35,585 bases of DNA, from NCBI GenBank assembly GCA_016205905.1, contig JACQSP010000090.1, positions 1 through 35,585 of the forward strand, written 5' to 3'. The stretch comes from Candidatus Woesearchaeota archaeon (GTDB lineage Archaea; Nanobdellota; Nanobdellia; Woesearchaeales; DSVV01). Of this stretch, positions 129-33,528 are shown one piece after another. A model generated the notes under the pieces. The model made no database searches. It was not told where the DNA came from and saw only the letters and a program-made list of their open reading frames with translations. The position numbers and the translations under genes were made by a program. Position 1 is the first letter of the stretch. Every line of letters starts with the position of its first letter.

Positions 129-374
129 GTAATGATTTGTTTTATCATTTAATATTTTTTCTCTCACTCTCAACTAGTTTGTGGGACGCAGTCCACCGTT
201 ACATGAAAATGTTTGAAAGCTTGAAAGCTCGAAAGTGCGCCATATGAGTCGTACTTTCAAGCGGTCAAGCTTTCTAACCATCTTACCTTTTTTAGTGAAC
301 GTGTCCAATCAGGTAGGAAACAAAAAAATAAATCAGGGTGAACGTTTGGCTTCGCCATAAAACTAAACAAATAC
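129..374. repeat. Family-1 palindromic MITE-like element; left end degenerate and only approximate
   Basis: Right terminus CTAAACAAATAC (363-374). Left block CTCAACTAGTTTGTGGGACGCAGTCCACCG (169-198) and right block TTGGCTTCGCC (346-356) are shared with copies at 4813, 15975, 18612 and 27752. Internal 25-bp imperfect hairpin 215-239/250-274 (21 WC + 1 GU) is built from ~8-nt TNGAAAGC repeats. Confidence 0.5.
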
Positions 375-4743: not shown

Positions 4744-4812
4744 GTTTCAGGAGCTATTTGTTTGCCTGCTCCAACACCCCCTATGTTTTGCAAATGAAAC
4801 TTAAAATAATTA

Positions 4813-5017
4813 GTATTTGTTTAGCTGATTTCTTTTTTATATCTTTTTTATCGCTCTCAACACGTTTGTGGGCGCAGCCACCCGTCTCATGAATTATTAG
4901 TTATTCGTTCTTCGTCATTCGTAACTAAGAACGAAAAACGAATAACAGTTCTATCATGAACGAATACCTGTTTTATCCTAATGAATCGGTGGCTTCGCCT
5001 TATCACTAAACAAATAA
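4813..5017. mobile_element. Family-1 MITE (205 bp) with 8-bp target-site duplication
   Basis: Terminal inverted repeats GTATTTGTTTAG (4813-4824) and CTAAACAAATAA (5006-5017), 11/12 complementary. Flanked by perfect direct repeats AATAATTA (4805-4812 and 5018-5025). Inner inverted pair GGCGCAGCCACC/GGTGGCTTCGCC. Central hairpin 4900-4915/4931-4946 (15/16). Confidence 0.8.
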
Positions 5018-5062
5018 AATAATTATAATAACATATCAAAGACAATAATAATAACTCTAAAA

Positions 5063-5723: not shown

Positions 5724-5755
5724 TAACTATCTCATATTTAAATACTGTGTTTTTT

Positions 5756-5848
5756 AAAGGTAGGAAAGTAAGAGGTTTGAGGTAAGAGGGAACAACTACG
5801 AGATTATCATCGTACCTCTTACCTCTAACCTCTTACATCTAACTCTTT
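5756..5848. repeat. Family-2 palindromic element
   Basis: Left arm AAAGGTAGGAAAGTAAGAGGTTTGAGGTAAGAGGG, core AACAACTACGAGATTATCATCGT, right arm ACCTCTTACCTCTAACCTCTTACATCT. Lies in the divergent tbp/thiI-like spacer. Confidence 0.75.
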
Positions 5849-6991: not shown

Positions 6992-7375
6992 AGTGAATAA
7001 ATTGTTTTATTAATATACCAATTCTTAATTGTTTATTCATAAATCTGAAGTATAATCTGTTATAATTTATTTATTGAATTATGAATTATTATTAATGAAT
7101 CAGTATAGTTAATGTTTATTTATTGCTCACTACTCGTTTGTTGGTTGTGGTAGGCTGTTGGTCGTGGACATCATCCCACAATTATTAACGTCGTCCGTTA
7201 TACGACAAACGACATACGACAAACTCGTTTCTGACCACTGAAACCTGACATTAATATGTCCACTGGTTTAAAAGCTCTAAACTCCTCAGCAGTTAGCTCA
7301 ATAGGGCTTTTAATAGATGTCCACTGGACAAGTCGGCGTAAGGTTTATATAGATAGCTGGTTTTACAGTCAACTT

Positions 7376-7768
7376 ATGAAAACTGACAATATTCATAATG
7401 CGTTGGTTGTATTTGAAGGTAAACAGATTAGGCGAGTCTGGGTTGATAACCAATGGTTCTTCTCTGTAATTGATATAATCAGAGTATTAACAGAAAGTGT
7501 TGATGCTAAAGATTATTGGTATAGGCTAAAGCAGAGAGAACAAGAAACAAGTGATGTTCAACTATCGACAATTTGTCGACAGTTGAAACTCCTTGCAGAA
7601 GATGGCAAACTTAGAGAAACTGATTGTGCCAATACAAAAAATATGTTTAGAATAATTCAATCAGTTCCTTCCCCAAAAGCAGAACCGTTTACTATTCAAA
7701 AATTCCGAGACACTGTCGCAGAAATTGTCTTGAAGCCACTACTGCCTTTTGCTGAGGAGAGACAATGA
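7376..7768 (+). pseudogene. Truncated Bro-N domain protein (homology ends about 7690)
   Basis: MKTDNIHNALVVFEGKQIRRVWVDNQWFFSVIDIIRVLTES...DYWYRLKQRE...LSTICRQLKL...FRIIQSVPSPKAEPF matches the N-terminal half of the common ~270-aa Bro-N family. The expected KLWLAKVGYERIEE continuation is absent. The 40 codons upstream of M41 (7256-7375) look non-coding. Confidence 0.6.
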
Positions 7769-7889
7769 CTTTGCACGCCAGTTTTATCTTGTTGAAACTG
7801 AAAAAGAATTTTGGAGTGTAATGGAACTCGACAGGCAAATAAGTTCAATGCTGTATGAAAGGCTTGCCTTAAGCAGTGAAAAAAACAAA
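7752..7889 (+). pseudogene. Fragment of a DUF1016/YhcG-type protein (N-terminal domain only)
   Basis: LRRDNDFARQFYLVETEKEFWSVMELDRQISSMLYERLALSSEKNK fits the YhcG N-terminal pattern (FY..E.....WSvReLeRQI.S.LfERLaLSkdK). No PD-(D/E)xK nuclease part follows, and the frame runs into a repeat arm. Confidence 0.5.
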
Positions 7890-7969
7890 TTAAACAATCA
7901 TAGTGAACGAATGGCTTCGCCAAGGAACGAAAAACAAACAAAAAGAACAGATAATAATAATTCACGACC

Positions 7970-8533: not shown

Positions 8534-8537
8534 TAAT
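8408..8537 (+). repeat. Direct repeat copy A: last 41 codons + stop + 4 nt of rnp3 (att-like)
   Basis: Aligns without indels to 10384-10513 (offset 1976 bp), with about 18 mismatches in 130 by hand count. Confidence 0.85.
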
Positions 8538-8740
8538 ATACTAAAAGTGCAAAATAATATATCGTTATACTAACACATTTCACACATTACACCCATTATA
8601 GCTTCTTCGTTATCAATAGTTTCAAATATGCATTTTGGACGCATTTCAAGCCGCAACACCCACATTATACTAACACATTTATGCTAAGTTTTTCAAATTA
8701 TAACTCTTTATCTCTAACTAAACCGCAACATTTATATAGT

Positions 8741-8788
8741 TGAACATATTTATACTAGTATGAACATATATAAATCAAGGTGAACATA
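8741..8788 (+). promoter_or_regulatory. Three TGAACATA iterons at exact 20-bp spacing over the promoter, SD and start of the AbiEi-like gene
   Basis: TGAACATA at 8741-8748, 8761-8768 and 8781-8788. TATA-like TTTATATAG at 8731-8739. SD AAGGTGA at 8777-8783. Confidence 0.5.
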
Positions 8789-9412
8789 ATGCTTATTACA
8801 AATGGAATGCAAAATATTATTCGTGTTTTGCTTAATTATAAAAACAAGGGTTTTACAACAAGGGAATTAGCTAAAGAAGCGAATGTATCTGTGGGGTTGA
8901 CTGTAAAACTTCTTAGTTCTTTAGCTGCAACAGGCTACATTGTTAAAAAACCAAAGATTAAACTAACCTCATTTAAACTGCTTAATGCGTGGGCTTATAC
9001 AACAAGCATAAAAGAAATAAGCCAGTTATCTTTTAGCGCTGCTGAACGACCAGAATATTTATTTAAAAAAATATCGCTTATTGCAGCGCAAAATAATCTC
9101 AACTATGCATTTACATTATACAGCGCAACAGAATTCGTTAGCCCTTTTGTAGTTCCTAACACCCTAGATTTTTATATTTTAAACAGTGATAAAGAGAAAT
9201 GGGAAACCAGTTTAGTCAAACACAATATTTTTCCAGCAGAAAAAGGGAATATAACTGTTTATCTTGTGGATAAAGATTATTTTTATAATCTTCTTGAGAT
9301 AAATGGCAACAAAATCATATCTTTGCCTCAGTTATATGTTGATTTGTTTTCATTAGGTGGCAGGGGTGAGGAAGCAGCGCAACAGCTTCTTAAGGCAATG
9401 GACAAAGTTTAG
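8789..9412 (+). CDS. AbiEi-like wHTH antitoxin/transcriptional regulator (putative)
   Basis: N-terminal wHTH FTTRELAKEANVSVGLTVKLLSSLAATGYIVKK. C-terminal ISLPQLYVDLFSLGGRGEEAAQQLL resembles the AbiEi C-domain. ATG at 8789 is preferred over the track's GTG at 8780 because the SD AAGGTGA lies 5 nt upstream. Confidence 0.5.
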   Translation: MLITNGMQNIIRVLLNYKNKGFTTRELAKEANVSVGLTVKLLSSLAATGYIVKKPKIKLTSFKLLNAWAYTTSIKEISQLSFSAAERPEYLFKKISLIAAQNNLNYAFTLYSATEFVSPFVVPNTLDFYILNSDKEKWETSLVKHNIFPAEKGNITVYLVDKDYFYNLLEINGNKIISLPQLYVDLFSLGGRGEEAAQQLLKAMDKV

Positions 9413-9500
9413 ACTTTTCATTTCCTGAATAAAACTATGACCCGCCTACAAAAGAAATGCAAAAGTTCAAAAAGTATGGTGTTCATAAAATAGAAAGAAT

Positions 9501-9632
9501 GTATTTGTTTAGCATCTTCAAAATTCCGTATGAAGTTTCGCAGAGGTGACATCCCTGTATGGGGCAAGTCCCCCTGTCACCTTTGCAATTAGGCTCAAAA
9601 TAAATTTTGGCCTTATGATGCTAAACAAATAC
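9501..9632. mobile_element. MITE (132 bp) with family-1 termini, perfect 16-bp TIRs and an 8-bp TSD
   Basis: GTATTTGTTTAGCATC (9501-9516) is the exact reverse complement of GATGCTAAACAAATAC (9617-9632). Flanked by GAAAGAAT at 9493-9500 and 9633-9640. Internal GC-rich hairpin GCAGAGGTGACA/TGTCACCTTTGC. Confidence 0.85.
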
Positions 9633-9669
9633 GAAAGAATATAATTTATTATAATTATGGTGATAAAAC

Positions 9670-10380
9670 ATGTATGATACTCATGAAACAGAAACATCAA
9701 AGAAGTATATGTATGAATTACTAAAACATTCATCTTCAATTAACATAGCTTTGATTGGTGGTTGGGCAGCATACATTTATGTCAATTCTAATTATAGAAA
9801 AGCATTTGGTGTGGATTATTTGATGTCAAGAGATATAGATGTCTTTATTGATGTTAAGCATGAAAAGAGGTTTGCTGACCTCATAAAAAACTTAGGATTT
9901 CAAAAAAGCGCATATCCTTTTAGGTATGAAATCATTTATGATAAAGCATCAAACAAGATAATTACGCAAGAGCAAGCTAAGAAGCACCACATCTTTAATT
10001 TGTTCTACATCTTTTTAGATTTATTCAGCAATAAACCCACAAAACTGCTTGGAACTTGGTGTATAGATTCTTTAAATAGCTCTAAACGAATATTTATAGA
10101 TAATATTCCTGTTTTAGATATAAATTCTCTTATTTTATTAAAGGCAACATCTTTTTTTGAAAGAGAGAAGTTAGACAAAGAATTAAAAGATGCGTGTGAT
10201 TTATACGCGCTTGTATTTTATTCAGAACAAAACCCACAATTAACTGAATTGCTTAAACATGCTTTAGACAAGATATTAAACAGACAAGACTTGTGCGAGT
10301 TTATCTCAGAGCAAGTGTTAAGGGATTCATTAAAGGCAGGCATTGTAAAACGAACGATTAGTAATTACTTGAGTAAATAA
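9670..10380 (+). CDS. AbiEii/DUF1814-like nucleotidyltransferase toxin (putative)
   Basis: LIGGWAAYIY...MSRDIDVFID fits the GG.A...R.(S/T).DID NTase motif. The downstream LILLKATSFFEREKLDKELKDACDLYAL fits K..A...R....KD..DL. SD GGTGA lies 6 nt upstream. Confidence 0.5.
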   Translation: MYDTHETETSKKYMYELLKHSSSINIALIGGWAAYIYVNSNYRKAFGVDYLMSRDIDVFIDVKHEKRFADLIKNLGFQKSAYPFRYEIIYDKASNKIITQEQAKKHHIFNLFYIFLDLFSNKPTKLLGTWCIDSLNSSKRIFIDNIPVLDINSLILLKATSFFEREKLDKELKDACDLYALVFYSEQNPQLTELLKHALDKILNRQDLCEFISEQVLRDSLKAGIVKRTISNYLSK

Positions 10381-15974: not shown

Positions 15975-16154
15975 ATATTTTTTTAGTTCCTGGGCGAAGC
16001 CACCCGTCTCATGAATAATAATAACTGTTTGTCGTAAGTCGTTTGTCGTTGGTCGTAAACAAAAAACGAAAAAAACAGCTGACGACTTACGACCTACGAC
16101 TAACGACTTACTCGCTCTTTGCTTCGCCTTTGAACTAAAAGAACTAAAAAATAC
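15975..16154. repeat. Family-1 variant palindromic element with GTCGTNN heptad arms
   Basis: Ends ATATTTTTTTAGTTC and GAACTAAAAAATAC are inverted. Contains GGGCGAAGCCACCCGTCTCATGAA. Left arm GTCGTAA GTCGTTT GTCGTTG GTCGTAA (16031-16058) pairs with CGACTTA CGACCTA CGACTAA CGACTTA (16083-16110), about 22/24. No TSD seen. Confidence 0.7.
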
Positions 16155-18611: not shown

Positions 18612-18811
18612 ATGTTCTGTTTTTTAATCTTATTTTCCGTTTTCAACTCGTTCTAGGGACGAAGTCCACGTCCACAAATAAAGGTAAGAAGTAAGAGGTT
18701 TGAGGTAAGAGGTACGATGATAACCTCGTAGTTGTTCCCTCTTACCTCCTACTTCTTACCTTTTACCTTTTTTTCATAAGACGTGTGGCTTCGCCTAGGA
18801 ACTAAAAAAAT
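18612..18811. repeat. Composite repeat: family-1 shell enclosing an inverted family-2 core; outer ends approximate
   Basis: Shell blocks CTAGGGACGAAGTCCACGTC (left) and GACGTGTGGCTTCGCCTAGGAACTAAAAA (right) are inverted. The interior 18679-18774 is a full family-2 element whose core (18704-18739) is the reverse complement of the other three. Confidence 0.7.
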
Positions 18812-18897
18812 AAAAAAAGCAATTACTTATTCCCTCGTAACCAGATAAAAACAACATATTTAAATAGTATTAATTAATAGATTAATAGTTATATACT

Positions 18898-25825: not shown

Positions 25826-25913
25826 ATATACTAAAAGTGTAAAATAATCGAACATTATTTTGCACTTTTGTATATACAAACGTGATTAATTTGTACGAAA
25901 ATTAATCACGTTT
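25826..25913. repeat. Two adjacent perfect or near-perfect hairpins just downstream of the giant gene (possible terminator or mini-palindromic element)
   Basis: HP1: ATATACTAAAAGTGTAAAATAAT (25826-25848), loop CGAAC, ATTATTTTGCACTTTTGTATAT(A) to 25876. HP2: AAACGTGATTAATTT (25878-25892), loop GTACGA, AAATTAATCACGTTT (25899-25913), 15/15. Confidence 0.7.
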
Positions 25914-25923
25914 AGTATATAAT
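25911..25923 (+). promoter_or_regulatory. Candidate TATA/promoter motif TTTAGTATATAAT for the first pilin-like gene
   Basis: The same 13-mer occurs at 28598-28610 upstream of 28641. It lies about 35-37 nt upstream of the ATG, and the SD AAGGTGA lies between motif and ATG. Confidence 0.4.
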
Positions 25924-25955
25924 AAGCAAAAAAAGATACAATCAAAGGTGAAGTT

Positions 25956-26488: not shown

Positions 26489-26609
26489 AAAAAGGTAAGA
26501 AAGTAAAGATTAAACAGTTAAAAGTAAGAGTAGGGGGTAAGGGGGAACAACTACGATGTTATCATCGTACCTCTTACCTTATACCTCTTACTTTTTACTT
26601 CTTACCTTT
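26489..26609. repeat. Family-2 palindromic element
   Basis: Core GGGAACAACTACGATGTTATCATCGTACCTCTTACC (26543-26578). Starts 3 nt after the stop of 25956..26486. The left arm carries a short insertion (GATTAAACAGTTAA). Confidence 0.75.
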
Positions 26610-26651: not shown

Positions 26652-27749
26652 ATGAACAAAAAAGGTGTGATTGAAATACAGTTCAACTGGATATTTATCT
26701 TTGTTGTAGGTACAGTTATCCTGCTATTCTTTGTTTTTATTGGCAAGTCTTATTTAGAGAACTCTAATCTTAAATTAGCTGGCAAGGTTTTGTATGATCT
26801 AGATTCAATTATGAAAGGTGCAACCTCGTCAACAAAGTCAGCTTCAAAATTAGAAATACCTAATCTTAAACTCAGGTTTACATGTTTTCCAGACTGCACT
26901 GAAGAAGGATGCAGCTCAGATTTTTCTATGGGTGATACTGGCGTTAACAAGCCGACACCCTACCAAGTTATATTCGCTCAAGAGGAGATTAACAGCGACT
27001 TTTTGATAACATGGACACTTGACTGGGGCGTTCCTTTCAAAGTTGCAAATTTTCTTTACTTGACATCACCAAATATAAGATATATTCTCGTCTACAAAAA
27101 TTCAATGGCAGAATCAAAAACTTTTGCAGAAAAAATATTTGCATTAATGTCAGACAATGAATTTCTGAACTCAGAATTGATAGAAGAAGAGCAATTACCT
27201 TCAATCGAAGACCAAGGCCATGACAAGATTAGGTTTGTCTTTTTTTATCAATTTGATGATATCTCTGATAAGACTAATGGAAAAAGTCTATCAGATACAA
27301 CATTTGATGTTCTGGTTCTAACTCCTAGCTTTGAAGGGACAGCCATCTTCTTGTCAGATAAACAAGTTATGAAAGAATTTAGCTATGACGAGCAGAAGAA
27401 GATTGGATATTTTGGTAAAGAAGCATTGGTTGGAGCAATATTTTCAGAAGATGAGAATTTCTTTGAGTGCAATATGCGAAAATCATTCAATCATCTAAAC
27501 CGAATTTATGATGTTTACAGATATAGAGCACTTTATCTTGCAAAATATATCGCTGACAATGATCAATTCTCACACTGCTCCCAAGTTTACAATGAATTTG
27601 CATCACTTCCAGACGAGACAATAGAATATCCTCAAGAACTTACAGAAGATGCTTATAAGACACCATTTTATTCAATCACAAAGATATTTCAGATAGCTGA
27701 AGATACAAATAATAAGGCAATAATTAACTCGTGCCCGAGACTGTATTGA
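26652..27749 (+). CDS. Class III signal (prepilin-like) protein, 365 aa
   Basis: MNKKG|VIEIQFNWIFIFVVGTVILLFFVF closely resembles the archaeal KKGQ-ISLEF class III signal consensus. Confidence 0.6.
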   Translation: MNKKGVIEIQFNWIFIFVVGTVILLFFVFIGKSYLENSNLKLAGKVLYDLDSIMKGATSSTKSASKLEIPNLKLRFTCFPDCTEEGCSSDFSMGDTGVNKPTPYQVIFAQEEINSDFLITWTLDWGVPFKVANFLYLTSPNIRYILVYKNSMAESKTFAEKIFALMSDNEFLNSELIEEEQLPSIEDQGHDKIRFVFFYQFDDISDKTNGKSLSDTTFDVLVLTPSFEGTAIFLSDKQVMKEFSYDEQKKIGYFGKEALVGAIFSEDENFFECNMRKSFNHLNRIYDVYRYRALYLAKYIADNDQFSHCSQVYNEFASLPDETIEYPQELTEDAYKTPFYSITKIFQIAEDTNNKAIINSCPRLY

Positions 27750-27751
27750 TT

Positions 27752-27956
27752 ATATTTGTTTAGCATTAATGTTTTTTTACTTTACACAATTTTACTACAT
27801 ACATTATATTATTGCTCACAGCACGTTTGTGGGACGCAGTCCCCGTCTCATGAAAAATCTTAAATTTTTTTTAAATGGCTGTATAAAAAACCCCCTATTA
27901 CCAACTAATAAAGCAAATAAAAACTTAAAAGCATCAAATAATAACTAAACAAATAC
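27752..27956. mobile_element. Family-1 MITE (205 bp) with 8-bp TSD (7/8)
   Basis: Ends ATATTTGTTTAG (27752-27763) and CTAAACAAATAC (27945-27956). Flanks TATTGATT (27744-27751, containing the upstream gene's TGA stop) and TATTAATT (27957-27964). Left block ATTGCTCACAGCACGTTTGTGGGACGCAGTCCCCGTCTCATGAA is present; the right GGCTTCGCC block is missing. Confidence 0.75.
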
Positions 27957-28044
27957 TATTAATTGAATTATGTCAACCATATAATTTAAATGAATAGTTA
28001 TGCACACAATTTAAGATAATACTTGCATTATTTAAACTAAAAAA

Positions 28045-28584
28045 ATGAAACCTACCACATATATCAAACACACCAAACAAAAACATGCGCAATTAAAAAT
28101 CGGCGAGTCTATCTTAGTTCTAATTATCTTTTTTATTCTGCTGACAATGGGTTTGGTATTTTATGCAAAGGTCCAGACACATTTAACCAAAGAAGATAAT
28201 GATGAATTTAATGCAAAACGTTCCATAGACATGGCTTTGGCTGTCAAATTTCTTCCTGAATTGCAGTGCACTGTGCAGGCAACAGAAGAGTTTGATTGTA
28301 TAGATATTGCTAAACTTTATATTTTTGGTGAAGTCTTAAAAAACAAGCCAGTTTATCAGAGATATTATGCGCAACTGTTTCCTAATGCAAAAATCATTAT
28401 AAAACAGGCATTTGCATCAGAGGGACCAATGATGCCGAAAGATGGCATTTTGTTGTTTGATAACAAATATGTAGAAGAGAAGCAAGCAGGCTCATTAAAT
28501 ATATTATTTTTTCCAGTCACACTTTACGATCCTTTAACAGATTCAAATAGTTTTGGATTTATTGAATTAGAGGTATATGGATAA
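28045..28584 (+). CDS. Class III signal (prepilin-like) protein, 179 aa
   Basis: ...KHAQLKIG|ESILVLIIFFILLTMGLVFYA. Confidence 0.5.
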   Translation: MKPTTYIKHTKQKHAQLKIGESILVLIIFFILLTMGLVFYAKVQTHLTKEDNDEFNAKRSIDMALAVKFLPELQCTVQATEEFDCIDIAKLYIFGEVLKNKPVYQRYYAQLFPNAKIIIKQAFASEGPMMPKDGILLFDNKYVEEKQAGSLNILFFPVTLYDPLTDSNSFGFIELEVYG

Positions 28585-28596
28585 CCTTTTTTATAC

Positions 28597-28610
28597 TTTT
28601 AGTATATAAT
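28597..28610 (+). promoter_or_regulatory. Candidate TATA/promoter motif TTTTAGTATATAAT
   Basis: Shares TTTAGTATATAAT with 25911-25923. Centre lies about 35 nt upstream of the ATG at 28641. Confidence 0.4.
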
Positions 28611-28640
28611 CAATCAAATAATTAATAAAAATATGTAAAA

Positions 28641-29612: not shown

Positions 29613-29655
29613 ATTTTTTGTTTCGTTCCAAGGCGCAGCCACCCGTTTCACTATT
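29613..29655. repeat. Solo left arm of the family-1 repeat
   Basis: TTTTTGTTTCGTTCCAAGGCGCAGCCACCCGTTTCAC. It is the reverse complement of the arm at 7911-7945 and resembles 15981-16010. No partner arm lies nearby. Confidence 0.6.
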
Positions 29656-29744
29656 TTAATTAGTTTATTTTTTTAAGTTTACTTTTCTAATAAAACTATT
29701 AAAAAGATATTAATCAGATAACCAAACACCATTTTTCTGTTAAC

Positions 29745-33440: not shown

Positions 33441-33528
33441 GGAAGGTCATAATCAGCCCCACTAAATCAACCAATCAAACATAGAATATACTAAAAGTCA
33501 TTAATTTTCATACAAAAACAAGTTAATT

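Follow-up and report, generated by a model that had tools for sequence, protein, structure and literature searches.

A modular MITE family in a woesearchaeal genome carries the ends of single-ORF IS66-family insertion sequences of DPANN archaea

The window analyzed here is one whole contig (C67, 35,585 nucleotides) of the assembly of a Woesearchaeota MAG, G000, which comprises 1.38 Mb in 154 contigs at 33.6% G+C and has an estimated completeness of 76.6%. Three short repeats lie between genes of this window, and each is bracketed by a pair of 8-mers (Table 1). Two other genomes serve for comparison: G001, which belongs to the same genus, and G002, which belongs to another genus of the same family. 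The initial annotation had read the three repeats as copies of a MITE family with 8-bp target-site duplications (TSDs). When the coordinates, lengths and flanks were read again, the three copies, their termini and the flanking 8-mers were found to be as it gave them, and so was the perfect 16-bp TIR of copy 2. The ORF check returned no ORF of at least 80 aa that overlaps any of the three copies, which are thus non-coding.

The architecture differs among the copies. The A-arm of copy 1 consists of the terminus, a T-rich stretch, a GGCGCAGCC mini-hairpin and GTCTCATGAA; a TTATTCGT-type palindrome forms the center, and the B-arm runs through GGTGGCTTCGCC into the right terminus, whose last base is A, not C. 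ORF 26652-27749 ends shortly before copy 3, which begins 3 nt past the stop codon; the A-arm of this copy contains a GGACGCAGTCC mini-hairpin, and its right half is A/T-rich and bears no B-arm hairpin. The longer copies had been described as sharing internal blocks that are themselves inverted. This is correct for the block ...CGTTTGTGGG(A)CGCAG(T)CC..GTCTCATGAA, with its short CGCAG hairpin, which both 205-bp copies have; of the two, only 4813-5017 has the inverted block GGTGGCTTCGCC as well. The equal length of these two copies is fortuitous, as their right halves bear no relation to each other. Copy 2 occupies part of the 257 bp that separate both genes of an AbiE-like cassette (ORFs 8780-9412 and 9670-10380), and its insertion might uncouple the co-transcription of the two. 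Whole copies, treated as single strands, fold far better than shuffled sequence (-33.4 kcal/mol and z -6.4 for copy 1; -32.5 kcal/mol and z -8.4 for copy 2). Any element whose ends are inverted repeats would be expected to fold in this way.

Table 1. Copies and fragments of the MITE family in the window, with flanking duplications. C6 and C32 are contigs of G001.
Feature	Coordinates	Strand	Remarks
TSD left, copy 1	4805..4812	.	AATAATTA; occurs once at the orthologous empty site G001:C6
MITE copy 1, 205 bp	4813..5017	+	without counterpart at the orthologous G001 site
TSD right, copy 1	5018..5025	.	AATAATTA
TSD left, copy 2	9493..9500	.	GAAAGAAT
MITE copy 2, 132 bp, young 'GCATC' subfamily	9501..9632	+	perfect 16-bp TIR GTATTTGTTTAGCATC
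TSD right, copy 2	9633..9640	.	GAAAGAAT
TSD left, copy 3	27744..27751	.	TATTGATT; the orthologous G001:C32 site has a single TATTAAT
MITE copy 3, 205 bp	27752..27956	+	orthologous G001 site without element
TSD right, copy 3	27957..27964	.	TATTAATT
Older copy	133..374	+	left terminus degenerate, left boundary approximate; exact right terminus 363-374
Older copy	15975..16154	-	B-arm, GTCGT-type palindrome, degenerate second end
Older copy	18614..18812	+	A-arm (GGACGAAGTCC hairpin), GGTAAGAGG-type palindrome, B-arm
A-arm fragment	7120..7250	+	left of Bro-N-like pseudogene remnant
B-arm fragment	7880..7947	+	right of Bro-N-like pseudogene remnant
Solo B-arm fragment	29615..29677	-	GGCGCAGCC hairpin

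Three older copies and three arm fragments in the window had been overlooked. The copy at 133..374 presents a AAGCTTGAAAG-type palindrome at its center. The termini at 15975..16154 read ATATTTTTTTAG and ACTAAAAAATAC, with no recognizable TSD around them, and those of 18614..18812 have decayed, so that the boundaries of this copy are approximate. Two of the arm fragments enclose an ORF at 7256-7768, which was considered as a transposase and rejected. Read by eye, its 170 aa resemble a Bro-N/antirepressor-like domain, and the fragments that come next resemble a YhcG/DUF1016-type gene; we take the ORF as a Bro-N-like pseudogene remnant. Related stretches are present in G001 on contigs C25, C61 and C32. 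It looks like the remnant of a decayed mobile element.

The window holds another repeat, of about 100 nt, that is built of two hairpins, ATATACTAAAAGTG…CACTTTTGTATATAC and AAACGTGATTAATTT…AATTAATCACGTTT (25826-25925), with partial copies at 8536-8568, 28573-28612 and 33486-33516. G000 has about 64 loci of this repeat and G001 over 40, at 86-99% identity. Three of its four copies in the window lie directly upstream of a gene start, and the repeat may itself be mobile or carry a promoter.

The terminus is conserved well beyond the window. The 12-mer GTATTTGTTTAG occurs 66 times in G000 (29 forward and 37 reverse), compared with 1 + 0 occurrences of the reversed control pattern. Among 41 genomes of the family and the order, G000 has 66 occurrences, G001 59 and G002 10, and the 38 other relatives stay at the control level of two or fewer. 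Pairing of termini in G000 yields 22 elements at up to one mismatch and 37 at up to two, with lengths of 132-380 bp. A BLAST search with the paired copies delimits 287 regions that together cover 35.5 kb, or 2.6% of the assembly; with fragments counted in, this amounts to a density of ~207 per Mb. The copy number is thus high, and 59 of the 287 regions are found at contig ends, which makes the family a main cause of the fragmentation of this assembly. All paired copies are intergenic, and many start 2-40 nt past a stop codon. They are present in both orientations, in tandem, convergent and divergent spacers at 19:6:3, near the genome-wide proportions. Rfam matched no family in the window.

The footprint of insertion is exactly 8 bp. 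Among 36 scorable terminus pairs, six have perfect 8-bp flank repeats and nine have repeats at up to one mismatch; the same 36 pairs gave no perfect repeat at k=4-7 or k=9-11. A match of at least 6/8 was observed in 13 of the 36, compared with 2.5% of controls in which left and right flanks had been mismatched, and controls reached 7/8 or better in only 0.5%. For the other 23 pairs no TSD is convincing, as one would expect of old copies, though recombination between copies would fit as well.

Comparison with G001, with which the window is collinear at 80-90% identity, shows that the insertions are polymorphic between the two species. Two of the three window copies have an empty site there. At the site of copy 1 (contig C6) the emptiness is clean, as ...CTTAAAATAATTATAAC... 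runs on uninterrupted with a single AATAATTA. At the site of copy 3 (contig C32) the element is absent and one TATTAAT is left, with a diverged right flank; a 93% identical variant of copy 3 occupies a non-orthologous position, G001:C31:7143-7349, with a 7/8 TSD of its own. The older copy 15975-16154, on the other hand, is common to both species at the orthologous site. Copy 2 belongs to a subfamily of 132-134 bp. G000 has 12 copies of it (88-96% identical), seven of which lie at contig ends, and searches of G001 and G002 found no copy. As G000 is the only one of the three searched genomes to have this subfamily, its spread most probably postdates the divergence from G001. Shared and lineage-specific insertions together argue that the family moved before the species split and, most likely, after it. 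The initial annotation had proposed a genome-wide search for the termini, a table of TSD lengths, a search for empty sites and a search for a transposase gene with the same TIR on both sides; all of these speak for a MITE family, the last with the restriction given below.

The main subfamily has a modular build, with an A-arm, a central palindrome and a B-arm. Inward from the terminus, the A-arm has a T-rich stretch of 30-60 nt, then a mini-hairpin and then GTCTCATGAA. The B-arm repeats the same mini-hairpin and terminus in inverted orientation, without the T-rich insert. The central palindromes are of several unrelated types, made of TTATTCGT, GTCGTAAGTCGT, AAGCTTGAAAG or GGTAAGAGG units. The mini-hairpin itself is a C-GNA-G loop that occurs in G000 as GGCGCAGCC (64 times), GGCGAAGCC (46), GGACGCAGTCC (67) and GGACGAAGTCC (35); its stems differ by a compensating A:T insertion, with 110 occurrences of GGCGNAGCC and 102 of GGACGNAGTCC. 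Altogether there are more than 210 instances of GNA mini-hairpins of the GGCGAAGCC, GGCGCAGCC and GGACGNAGTCC kinds. GNA loops of the GCGAAGC type form unusually stable DNA mini-hairpins.

At least four unrelated interiors are held within the same termini: the A-arm/palindrome/B-arm type, the 132-bp type, the A/T-rich 205-bp type and a 204-bp type in G002. The last has one perfect and one register-shifted 8-bp duplication. Unrelated interiors behind common termini are what mobilization in trans through the ends alone predicts. One case shows that the center can differ at a single site: between 15975-16154 and its G001 ortholog (C32:~7482-7680) the termini, the subterminal arm and the flanks are the same, and the central part is entirely different. 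The center has thus been replaced in place, or the site has been hit twice. A palindrome whose GGTAAGAGG-type arms enclose the asymmetric core AACAACTACGATG-TTAT-CATCG is present at about 81 loci in G000; in the window it stands solo at 1174-1271, 5751-5848 and 26506-26603, and inside a MITE at 18680-18775. This double occurrence, solo and as a MITE center, suggests that the modules move or recombine independently.

A transposase that could serve these ends was sought in the assembly itself, in relatives and in viral contigs. None of the profiles PF00872, PF12762, PF01610 and PF03050 has a match in the 76.6%-complete assembly of G000, where the best tblastn hit for an IS66-type transposase has an E-value of 1.3. 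An IS66-type transposase was likewise not found in G001 by PF03050 profile and sequence search, nor did the search of viral contigs for a transposase and for the 20-nt terminus give anything. The lack of the gene in two assemblies is weak evidence of true absence, since G000 is incomplete and breaks at repeats, and since elsewhere these ISs often lie on 2-3-kb contigs. Several candidates were rejected. Two wide terminus pairs in G001 (1.6 kb on C55 and 2.4 kb on C12) are in each case two MITEs that flank ordinary genes. Two non-MITE-like termini on contig C17 of G000 have no transposase-like ORF between or beside them, as read by eye. The DDE_Tnp_1 elements on C136 of G000, C21 of G001 and C119 and C46 of G002 do not have the MITE terminus; the one on C136 (L001, ~110-1527) encodes 374 aa and has CAGACATTCCGAA-type inverted ends. 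An IS6-like element on C69 of G000 (~1440-2310), with a single PF13610 match (E 3e-10), has other ends as well.

Closer to the goal, G002 carries C-terminal fragments of an IS66-type transposase at no fewer than eight contig ends, and 10 of the 13 positions in the terminus beside them, GTACTTATTAAGC, agree with the MITE terminus. These fragments belong to one multi-copy element (L036-L043, on contigs C3, C45, C63, C109, C54, C18, C95 and C16) whose body is missing from the assembly, an example of how MAGs lose such ISs. A profile search found PF03050 in 28 of 201 genomes of the order, and at two of these loci the ends match exactly. L028 (1563 bp, 439-aa ORF) and L029 (1594 bp, 452-aa ORF) bear GTATTTGTTTAGC at both ends and are flanked by perfect 8-bp TSDs, AAAAAATT and ACAAAAAT, respectively. 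Their products match PF03050 (DDE_Tnp_IS66) at E-values of 1.2e-33 and 1.7e-32, each over profile positions 2-283 of 284. In each, one transposase-sized ORF fills the element and leaves no room for the tnpA and tnpB of classical IS66. The two transposases are just 53% identical, so conservation of the terminus extends over a clade.

Searching the GTDB species genomes with an alignment of these two transposases yielded 35 loci, of which 22 are complete elements of 1.41-1.81 kb. All 22 have the MITE terminus, or a variant of it with one or two mismatches, at both ends, and 13 of them have perfect 8-bp TSDs. The hosts are mostly MAGs labeled Nanoarchaeota, Woesearchaeota, Micrarchaeota, Nanohalarchaeota and Altiarchaeota, and the elements mostly lie on 2-3-kb contigs. 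Five loci (L065, L068, L071, L075 and L088) show the DPANN terminus in MAGs labeled Methanosarcinales, Syntrophales, Thermoplasmatota and Spirochaetales; several of their contigs measure 2-3.5 kb, and mis-binning or transfer between a DPANN archaeon and its neighbors may account for them. The left end of the IS (GTATTTGTTTAGCTGATTTC, then TG) is identical to the first 20-22 nt of the MITE A-arm. At the right end 13-15 nt are common with the B-arm and nothing further inside is; the internal sequence of the MITEs does not derive from the IS. Within the order, IS66 termini grade from the classical GTAAGCGTC (L014) through GTAAGTAAT, GTAACTAAT and GTACTTATT to GTATTTGTT, and the elements of this series have 8-bp duplications wherever these can be scored. 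By sequence, then, the partner is very probably a clade of single-ORF IS66-family (ISBst12-like) elements that resides in DPANN MAGs. The initial annotation had thought of IS6, IS256 or IS1595, a guess that the termini do not bear out; the transposase bounded by the same TIR for which it had advised to look exists in other DPANN genomes, and none was found in the G000 assembly.

We consider it very probable that the repeats are non-autonomous MITEs that use the ends of these DPANN-wide single-ORF IS66 (ISBst12-like) insertion sequences. In the mechanism that we propose, an IS66-type DDE transposase would recognize the terminal 13 bp, GTATTTGTTTAGC, and on the A-arm side recognition would extend to some 20-22 bp (GTATTTGTTTAGCTGATTTC). 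The enzyme would then cut A/T-rich intergenic DNA with a stagger of 8 bp and insert the element there, and repair would give rise to the 8-bp duplication. That such a transposase moves these MITEs is suggested by their ends; a source copy would be present in this lineage now, or would have been recently, and the 76.6%-complete assembly contains none. The copies might instead be immobile fossils, left behind when the IS66 source was lost, with all copies, the 132-bp subfamily included, older than that loss. The failure to find an IS66 transposase in G000 or G001 fits such an account, as do the decay of termini or TSDs in most copies and the fact that even the 132-bp copies are not identical to one another. 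Set against it are the incompleteness of an assembly whose contigs break at repeats (59 MITE regions and seven of the twelve 132-bp copies are at contig ends), the ease with which ISs on 2-3-kb contigs are lost in binning, and the 132-bp subfamily, not found in G001 or G002, which most likely spread after the split. On balance we regard the fossil scenario as possible but rather unlikely.

Two other explanations fare worse. The repeats could be first of all structures with a function, whether as terminators, as a family of small RNAs or as protein-binding hairpins, in which case the 8-mers beside them would be incidental. The strong folds (z -8.4 and -6.4), the mini-hairpin that is kept through a compensatory A:T insertion (110 GGCGNAGCC against 102 GGACGNAGTCC) and the many copies that begin 2-40 nt after a stop codon would suit this; TSDs of exactly 8 bp, a clean empty site, copies in both orientations, ends identical to those of a transposase-bearing IS and the lack of an Rfam match make it very improbable. 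Some copies may have been co-opted secondarily, which would leave the identity of the element as a MITE unchanged. Mobilization by another family that makes 8-bp TSDs deserves hardly any credence. Such a duplication is compatible with IS6, IS256, IS1595 and ISL3, and an IS6-like gene does exist on C69; yet neither this element nor the DDE_Tnp_1 element of C136 is bounded by the MITE terminus, PF00872, PF12762 and PF01610 are without a match in G000, no IS of these families bounded by GTATTTGTTTAG was found, and at each end of 22 IS66-type elements stands the MITE terminus or one nearly identical to it. What the IS66 model leaves unexplained are the GNA mini-hairpins and the central palindromes, neither of which has a counterpart in the IS. 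We see a small chance, and judge it improbable, that the hairpin modules spread by themselves, copied in place between MITEs through templating or recombination, with a possible secondary use as terminators or 3'-end structures, or else that the transposase comes from an extrachromosomal or foreign source in a lineage that lacks the gene. This modular hairpin content is the sole part of the family that might hide something new.

The family is otherwise well supported and, in kind, ordinary selfish DNA. A single family accounts for ~2.6% of a reduced genome and for a large share of its contig breaks, and very small, probably symbiotic archaea thus still carry expanding selfish DNA. The hairpins of this family have repeatedly passed for RNA genes or regulatory structures. 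With the terminus and its IS66-type partner known, such elements can be masked in DPANN MAGs. Their insertions, some common with the sister species and others lineage-specific, can be used as markers of lineage history. A little-studied branch of IS66, the ISBst12 group, is extended to a clade found across DPANN MAGs; a literature search turned up no work connecting IS66 with DPANN MITEs. In a MITE census, a Woesearchaea genome was among the archaea of highest MITE density, with 105 per Mb (PMC11602168).

By every defining feature tested the family is a MITE family, and its ends assign it to the ISBst12 branch of IS66. It resembles the known prokaryotic MITEs (the Correia elements of Neisseria, the pneumococcal RUP and the SM elements of Sulfolobus) in being short and non-coding, with TIRs and a TSD of fixed length, and in lying between genes in many copies that fold into long hairpins. 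It differs from them in that one IS66-type terminus encloses several unrelated interiors, and in the modular composition of its main subfamily from GNA mini-hairpins and swappable central palindromes. For the partner, the closest described system is ISDge4 of Deinococcus geothermalis, a member of the ISBst12 group with the TIR GTAACTGCTCAGCA, an 8-bp direct repeat and one transposase of 449 aa (PMC12898284). The partner ISs have the same organization, with a single ORF of ~440-450 aa that matches PF03050, a length of 1.4-1.8 kb and 8-bp duplications. They also have the same TIR pattern, GTA..TG.T.AGC, and GTATTTGTTTAGCT agrees with the ISDge4 TIR at 9 of 14 positions. IS66 elements at large make 8-bp direct repeats and have inverted repeats beginning GTAAGCG (PMC11946415). 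In contrast to this classical terminus, the one described here reads GTATTTG..., starting with GTAT and not GTAA, and it agrees with ISDge4 in starting with GTA and in having AGC at positions 11-13. The window differs from the ISBst12 group in holding non-coding derivatives only, and the clade to which their ends point, known from sequence, has DPANN archaea as its hosts.
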